1,123 bases of DNA. Origin: Escherichia coli. GTDB lineage: Bacteria > Pseudomonadota > Gammaproteobacteria > Enterobacterales > Enterobacteriaceae. Below are positions 1 to 1,100 of the stretch, one piece after another. The DNA is taken from assembly GCF_003334355.1 (NCBI RefSeq), contig NZ_QOWP01000097.1, one strand, 5' to 3'. The notes beneath the pieces are model-generated. The model made no database searches. It saw nothing but the letters and a program-made list of their open reading frames with translations, and had not been told where the DNA came from. The position numbers and the translations under genes were made by a program. Positions within the stretch are counted from its first letter, which is position 1. Each line of letters begins with the position of its first letter.

Positions 1-1100
1 TAGTTTCTGTCCATGGCTGCTTTTCGCATCTTACGTCTTAACCCTGCCTTGAATACCTTATCATTCGTCAAAATATTAATAGCAATGTGCCGTATCCCTG
101 AAAATAATTCTGCTGCATTTCCTCTTCTTATTTTGCAGTCGTCTTCATTCATTACCACGTCCAGACGCCAGTGCAGCTTATTCTCCACGTGCCAGTGATT
201 TCGGATCGCTGTGGCGAATTTCTCAGCGGTTAAATCAGCAGAACTGATATAATATCTGACCGTTATTTCTGGCTCTTTCTTTTGTTCTGCTATTATGGAC
301 CGAAAGGAGACTGCCACGCATAATTTCTTCAGCCCTTTCCATTCAAACGTGAAATCAATAAGTTCATCAGGGACATCGCAAACAATATGAAGACGGATTT
401 CTTCTCTGCCGTGACTCTTTTCACTCATTGCGTAACTGTCATGCTCTGGATTATTTAATTCTTTCAGCGGAAATTTTTCCTCAAAGGCTTTATTTAGCCG
501 CCCCTGGTTTCCTTTTACCGCGAATAAATAATCACCTCCCTGTTTTTGTATCTTCTCTGCAATATCTTTCTGGCAACCCATCGCATCAGTTGTGATGATT
601 TTTCCTTTAATATCCAGCATGTTAAGAAGTTCTGGGATAGCTGTAATCTCATTAGATTTCTCATCCGTCTTGATCTGTCCGATGACCAGACTGTGCATTG
701 TTGAGAACGCACTAATGACATGAATCGCTCCCCTGCGGCGACTCTTGTCATAAGAGTGCCGGAGCGTTTTTCCATCAATTGCAATGACGTCTTTATCATC
801 TGAAGAATGGCAGTCACGCATCCAGTTAATAAAGCACTCGTGAAATTTTGCAGGACTGATACAGGATACAACTCTGGCAATGGTATCGTGAACAGGAATA
901 CCATTTTCAAAATCACCATATTGCTTCAAAAAATCGAGATGTGTTTCCCCAAAATCCTCTATATCTTCCCAACCTTCTGCACCAGAAATAACGGCACAAA
1001 TAGTCAACAGTAGAATATCCGATAATTTATGTTCCACTTTCCAGGGTTGTCTGTAATCGGGGATAATAGAAATATGTTCCATCAATTTTTTAAGTTCCAT
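1..1100 (-). CDS. ISAs1-family DDE transposase (H-repeat-associated protein, H-rpt; YhhI/YdcC-like), 3' end truncated by window edge
   Basis: Hand translation of the reverse complement from the ATG at 1100..1098 gives an uninterrupted 366-codon frame: [366 protein letters not shown], followed by a partial codon TA at positions 2..1. From memory this closely resembles the E. coli H-repeat proteins (ISAs1 family), including the [15 protein letters not shown] and NHWHVEN motifs. I cannot tell which paralog it is, so no gene symbol is given. No stop codon is in the window; the C-terminus lies beyond position 1. Confidence 0.9.

Follow-up and report, generated by a model that had tools for sequence, protein, structure and literature searches.

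The stretch of DNA analysed here, hereafter the window (1123 bp), is very probably (probability about 0.9) an internal segment of a 1291-bp H-rpt/ISEc1 element of the ISAs1 family, of the old-resident type, from Escherichia coli or a species very near to it. Its closest relative is yhhI, and its coding part accounts for the first 366 residues of a DDE transposase of 378 aa. The ISAs1 family was founded on ISAs1 of Aeromonas salmonicida, and H-rpt/ISEc1 has been described in the Rhs elements of Escherichia coli since the early 1990s (1993). The element is already known, and automatic annotation marks it in nearly all E. coli genomes.

Reading frame and family assignment

Read on the minus strand, the window opens with CTTACATAATTAAGGAGAACAAAATGG and contains a Shine-Dalgarno sequence followed by an ATG (Table 1). 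From this start, 366 stop-free codons run down to base 3 and off the left edge of the window. The two remaining bases (positions 1-2, TA on the minus strand) are the start of a Tyr codon that is present in full-length relatives. The transposase frame contains no stops, compared with 12-36 in each of the other five frames, and 366 open codons would be expected by chance with a probability of about 3e-12 given the base composition of the window. In the relatives, the transposase continues for 12 codons past the window edge (YLASVLAGSGLS) and then reaches its stop codon. Both this C-terminal part and the stop codon fall beyond base 1, and the description of the ORF as intact therefore holds for 366 of 378 codons only.

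An earlier note, made from the letters of this DNA, had described an uninterrupted 366-codon frame with a Shine-Dalgarno sequence and an ATG and had expected a full length of about 378 aa. Both statements agree with the sequence (AAGGAG, 6-nt spacer, ATG, no stops) and with the nearest relatives, which are 378 aa long. It gave coordinates of 1-1100; on the minus strand, the coding sequence proper occupies 3-1100. Two other sources of coding capacity were considered and rejected: the plus-strand frames contain 12-28 stops each, and a 134-aa ORF in another minus-strand frame has no PHROGs match. Searches of both strands for non-coding RNAs (Rfam at E<=1) and for tRNAs (ARAGORN) returned none.

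Table 1. Positions of the transposase gene, its domains and other features in the window
Feature	Position	Strand	Remarks
Shine-Dalgarno AAGGAG	1112-1107	minus	6-nt spacer before ATG; read directly from the sequence
ATG start	1100-1098	minus	RefSeq start codon, identical in every relative examined
ISEc1/H-rpt (ISAs1-family) transposase gene, codons 1-366	3..1100	minus	translation, NF033564, identity to yhhI
DDE_Tnp_1_assoc, N-terminal, aa 8-94	819..1079	minus	Pfam PF13808, E 1.2e-33; helical in the model
DDE_Tnp_1, catalytic, aa 102-343	72..797	minus	Pfam PF01609, E 8e-31; Tn5-transposase-like predicted fold
D109	776-774	minus	invariant in the 12-member family alignment
D172	587-585	minus	invariant in the 12-member family alignment
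E306	185-183	minus	invariant in the 12-member family alignment
Codon 19, CCC (Pro)	1044..1046	minus	closest yhhI alleles GCC (Ala) or ACC (Thr)
Codon 279, ATA (Ile), rare allele	264..266	minus	relatives ATG (Met)
Partial stem-loop	1107..1123	minus	7-bp perfect stem, CTCCTTA and TAAGGAG around CATAAT; 3' arm is the Shine-Dalgarno sequence, just before ATG

The encoded protein scores 418.2 bits with the NCBIfam model NF033564 (transpos_ISAs1; cut-off 70), and the match spans profile positions 1-314 of 314. The two Pfam domains of the family, DDE_Tnp_1_assoc and then DDE_Tnp_1, are present in the expected order within a single ORF. This makes the protein a DDE transposase of the ISAs1 family, and every family trait open to testing within the window is present. 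The assignment to H-rpt/ISAs1 proposed in the earlier note is therefore borne out by the NCBIfam score, by the Pfam domains and by 99.8% DNA identity to yhhI/ISEc1 genes, and its view that this is a member of a known element family and no novel system stands. Membership in a defence system was also considered and was rejected, as PADLOC gave no match.

Other ISAs1-family elements, annotated as ISKpn31, ISAs12, ISKpn9, ISPa60, ISAzs11 and ISRm21, resemble the window element in having a single ORF of about 370-390 aa, both Pfam domains, the invariant DDE triad and, where they could be located, CAGGG termini. However, their proteins are only 28-51% identical to that of the window, and several of these elements reside on conjugative plasmids. 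They also differ in their insertion sites, with duplications of about 10 bp at 3 of 10 loci, whereas the H-rpt copies of E. coli lie on the chromosome without such duplications.

Conserved residues and predicted fold

The window protein was aligned with yhhI and with ten ISAs1-family transposases from plasmids, which span nine genera and five phyla at 28-51% identity. The resulting 12-member alignment has 22 invariant columns, and the window protein retains all 22, including D109 (IAIDGK), D172 (TTDAMG) and E306 (HWHVEN). The two substitutions that distinguish the window, at codons 19 and 279, lie in variable columns. Thus, the comparison of catalytic residues suggested beforehand revealed no substitution at a conserved or catalytic position. 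Together, the open frame and the retention of all invariant residues make the coding capacity look intact.

An AlphaFold model built on the same alignment has a mean pLDDT of 84.5 and places helices at residues 2-97. Among solved structures, its best Foldseek matches are to the Tn5 transposase (E 8e-10, TM 0.54-0.58), followed by piggyBac. A sequence search found no relative among solved structures, and the link to Tn5 thus comes through the predicted fold alone. The model and the Tn5 (IS50, IS4 family) transposase (PDB 1MUH/4DM0) are alike in their DDE RNase-H-type fold (E 8e-10 to 2e-09), but they share only 7-9% identity in the structural alignment and differ in length (378 aa vs 477 aa for Tn5) and in the N-terminal domain. 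With 18.7 bits, against an NCBIfam IS4 cut-off of 115, the window protein falls outside the IS4 family. The Tn5-like fold suggests cut-and-paste chemistry, which in Tn5 involves a hairpin intermediate. Conservation and the modelled fold also point to a catalytic role for the DDE triad, and the DDE_Tnp_1_assoc domain presumably binds the element ends.

According to the mechanism proposed here, the single ORF would yield a 378-aa transposase whose N-terminal domain is helical and whose catalytic domain (D109, D172, E306) has a Tn5-like RNase-H fold. The enzyme would bind the terminal inverted repeats, which match imperfectly (CAGGGAAAGATCATCAAA / CAGGGCAAGATTACGAAA), excise the element and paste it into a new site. 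Insertion would duplicate about 10 bp of the target, as in distant family members. For the window transposase, we infer both the catalytic chemistry and the DNA binding.

Region upstream of the start codon

The Shine-Dalgarno sequence forms the 3' arm of a putative stem-loop; the window edge cuts through the 5' arm, leaving 4 of its 7 nt. The complete hairpin is found at the yhhI locus (L001 5998-6017), and a terminator/hairpin scan followed by folding of L001 5984-6032 gave -8.0 kcal/mol with z = -2.9. In the E. coli element, the shuffle control for pairing of the Shine-Dalgarno sequence was marginal (23/300). A stem of this kind could damp translation.

A family-wide hairpin sequestering the Shine-Dalgarno sequence was considered and rejected. 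The minimum free energy folds of six distant members place GGAG in a 3' stem arm; shuffling only the upstream bases produced similar pairing in most, and only L013 (0/300) stood out. Conservation of the hairpin across the ISAs1 family is not claimed. A promoter upstream of the ORF was likewise rejected. The lone candidate, TATACA-17-CATAAT, has its -10 element inside the hairpin loop, and the number of promoter candidates in the upstream region is at chance level (4 found vs 4.2 expected).

Closest copies and allelic variation

By megablast, the window has matches in 5343 (98%) of the 5426 complete E. coli genomes searched, at 1-14 places per genome (median 5). The best match is yhhI of strains S30 and G4/9, with 99.8% identity (1121 of 1123 bases, 2 mismatches). 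In E. coli K-12 and relatives, yhhI (H-rptB/ISEc1) has the start codon, Shine-Dalgarno sequence and frame in common with the window. It is annotated in RefSeq as 'ISAs1-like element ISEc1 family transposase' and is located downstream of rhsB, in the order nikR-rhsB-yhhH-(H-rpt)-yhhJ. Genes of the yhhI type encode 378 aa with the C-terminus MDRNYLASVLAGSGLS. The ydcC, ybfL and cusS-nfrB copies are 96.4-98.4% identical to the window at the DNA level, and the comparison with ISEc1/H-rpt paralogues that had been suggested thus places the window nearest to yhhI. The window lies wholly inside the element, without flanking DNA, and Ec387 carries a near-copy, with 5 differences in 1098 coding bases, at another rhs locus, close to xerC; the likeness to yhhI is therefore one of sequence and does not fix the locus of the window. 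No copy identical to the window was found in the 5426 complete E. coli genomes. The exact protein, brought to a guessed full length by appending the C-terminus of its relatives, is not on record.

Both differences between the window and yhhI are nonsynonymous (A19P and M279I). The first base of codon 19 is tri-allelic among near-identical yhhI-type copies (Pro CCC, Ala GCC, Thr ACC). An exact 60-mer carrying the Pro-19 allele occurs in 401 records, and both loci inspected are the cusS-nfrB paralogue. Judged from these sequences, the distribution of codon 19 alleles and the presence of Pro in the paralogue suggest short-tract gene conversion or a mutable site. The Ile-279 allele is much rarer: among about 5050 matching records, only that of strain PSS-12 contains its exact 60-mer, at yhhI. 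The C-to-T change at base 264 that causes M279I completes a 13-nt inverted repeat (CCGTTATTTCTGG/CCAGAAATAACGG) that would otherwise match at 12 of 13 positions; its arms, at 260-272 and 982-994, are 709 nt apart. Random substitutions created a repeat of at least 13 nt in 3 of 3000 trials. The change at base 264 could be a templated mutation or an after-the-fact coincidence.

Two alleles at the yhhI locus, L019 and L022, carry N198T in the family-invariant KGNQ motif; the equivalent positions in the window (507-509) retain Asn. Because N198 is invariant, some open yhhI genes may be functionally impaired. L019 additionally has four changes clustered within 30 nt, a pattern that looks like a gene-conversion tract.

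Selection and decay

Copies from different loci show dN/dS values of 0.05-0.27 at dS of 0.05-0.17 (Nei-Gojobori, 366 codons), which indicates that the protein was under constraint while the paralogues diverged. Among yhhI-type alleles there are 12 variable sites, 7 of which are nonsynonymous. These few data are compatible with relaxed constraint on the resident copies.

Many H-rpt copies are pseudogenes, as the earlier note had stated: K-12 ybfL contains a stop, ybfD and ybfQ are fragments, and yhhI of ES4 is annotated as frameshifted. The rhsC region of K-12 (L007 9303-11861) holds three H-rpt pieces arranged head to tail, namely ybfQ (element positions 1-381), ybfL (a full copy with a stop) and ybfD (element positions 25-913). 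The pseudogene yncI, near rhsE and directly upstream of ydcC, has no H-rpt match at E 1e-10.

These lesions bear on a second reading, in which the window would derive from a slowly decaying, immobile relic whose protein is idle and whose ORF has stayed open either for want of time to decay or through repair by gene conversion from other copies. The frequency of pseudogenes, the N198T alleles and the clustered changes in L019 favour such decay. However, the dN/dS values, at 5-15% synonymous divergence, argue for selection through most of the divergence of the paralogues, and the window copy retains every invariant residue, N198 included. On balance, a relic of this kind is rather unlikely, and an old-resident H-rpt/ISEc1 segment with an open transposase gene is the preferred reading.

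Element ends and insertion contexts

Copies at different loci share sequence that starts and stops sharply, which delimits the element as a 1291-bp unit ending in CAGGG...CCCTG (L001 5880-7170). Relative to this unit, the window lacks 121 bases on the left and 47 on the right. In the nearest relatives, the element runs from CAGGGAAAGATCATCAAA to TTTCGTAATCTTGCCCTG; on the other strand the right end reads CAGGGCAAGATTACGAAA, and 14 of 18 positions match. In ISfinder descriptions, the terminal inverted repeats of the ISAs1 family are about 14-22 bp long and begin with CAGGG. A target-site duplication of 8-10 bp is expected on insertion of a family member. Distant members also start with CAGGG where their ends could be located. 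The GC content of the element (40% vs 54% in the flanks) is consistent with a foreign origin.

Two types of left end occur, which diverge after the first 13 bases. The yhhI type reads CAGGGAAAGATCA-TCAAAAGTTCAC (L001 5892-5904), and the ydcC(Bone4)/ybfL type reads CAGGGAAAGATCA-CGTAACGCTGCT (L006 4013-4025, L007 9695-9707). The left end matches the right end at 16 of 21 positions in the latter but at only 14 of 21 in the former, and this poorer fit in the yhhI type lends some weight to an immobile relic.

Seven E. coli contexts (loci L001, L003, L006, L007, L008, L021 and L023) were compared: yhhI, cusS-nfrB, ydcC in K-12, ydcC in STO_Bone4, the Ec387 rhs fragment, the galF/O-antigen cluster in A30, and ybfL nested among H-rpt fragments. 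All seven have the CAGGG...CCCTG termini, except for a degenerate right end in A30. The A30 copy (L023 1380-2667), between galF and the O-antigen genes, has an ORF that is open over the 366 codons compared, and its right end reads CCTTA, not CCCTG. No target-site duplication or flanking direct repeat was found in any of the seven contexts, which again speaks for a relic. Among ten distant family members, three (L010, L014 and L017) have target duplications of about 10 bp beside CAGGG-type ends. According to PMC3032704, which cites Zhao et al. (1993), no transposition of H-rpt has been observed, a further point in favour of immobility. Matches occur in 25 of 72,556 plasmid records. These were rejected as evidence of mobility, as the two inspected are chromosomal fragments labelled as plasmids (nfrB/nfrA and ansP/nhoA).

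STO_Bone4 and K-12 share the ydcC copy, but their right flanks diverge exactly at the element terminus (L006 5291-5292 vs L008 9963-10224). In STO_Bone4, 260 bp that comprise part of pptA are missing there, and rhsE is absent as well. From the aligned flanks, this junction looks like an adjacent deletion or an exchange of flanks. It may be one hint of past activity at the element ends, and recombination between copies could also produce it.

Most of the sampled copies lie directly downstream of rhs genes or fragments (rhsB, the vgrG/rhs locus at cusS-nfrB, rhsE, rhsC and the Ec387 rhs fragment). This arrangement raises a third reading, in which the transposase has been domesticated: the host would keep it for a role at Rhs loci, such as the shuffling of orphan rhs toxin/immunity cassettes, and it would no longer be an autonomous mobile element. 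The occurrence of the element in nearly all E. coli genomes, the purifying selection on its paralogues, the lack of target duplications and the lack of genuine plasmid copies among those checked would all fit such a role. Nevertheless, the copies at ansP-yddH in STO_Bone4 and in the A30 cluster have no annotated rhs gene nearby, and the terminal repeats, which a domesticated gene would not need, have been kept intact. Additionally, many copies are pseudogenes, none of the defence-system models matches, and a literature search turned up no published experiment on a host function. Domestication is thus very improbable.

The segment is best regarded as part of an H-rpt/ISEc1 element of the old-resident type. 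Since the sampled E. coli copies lack signs of recent transposition, an intact ORF is not evidence of mobility. The earlier suggestion that this copy may encode a functional transposase is upheld with respect to coding capacity but not mobility. As far as the sequence can tell, its coding capacity looks intact, and its mobility is unproven.

Implications

The useful outcome of this analysis is a negative one, in that the window contains no new system; what it does contain is a copy of a familiar element that is free of lesions in its visible part. The E. coli copies that were sampled have the appearance of old residents reshuffled by recombination.
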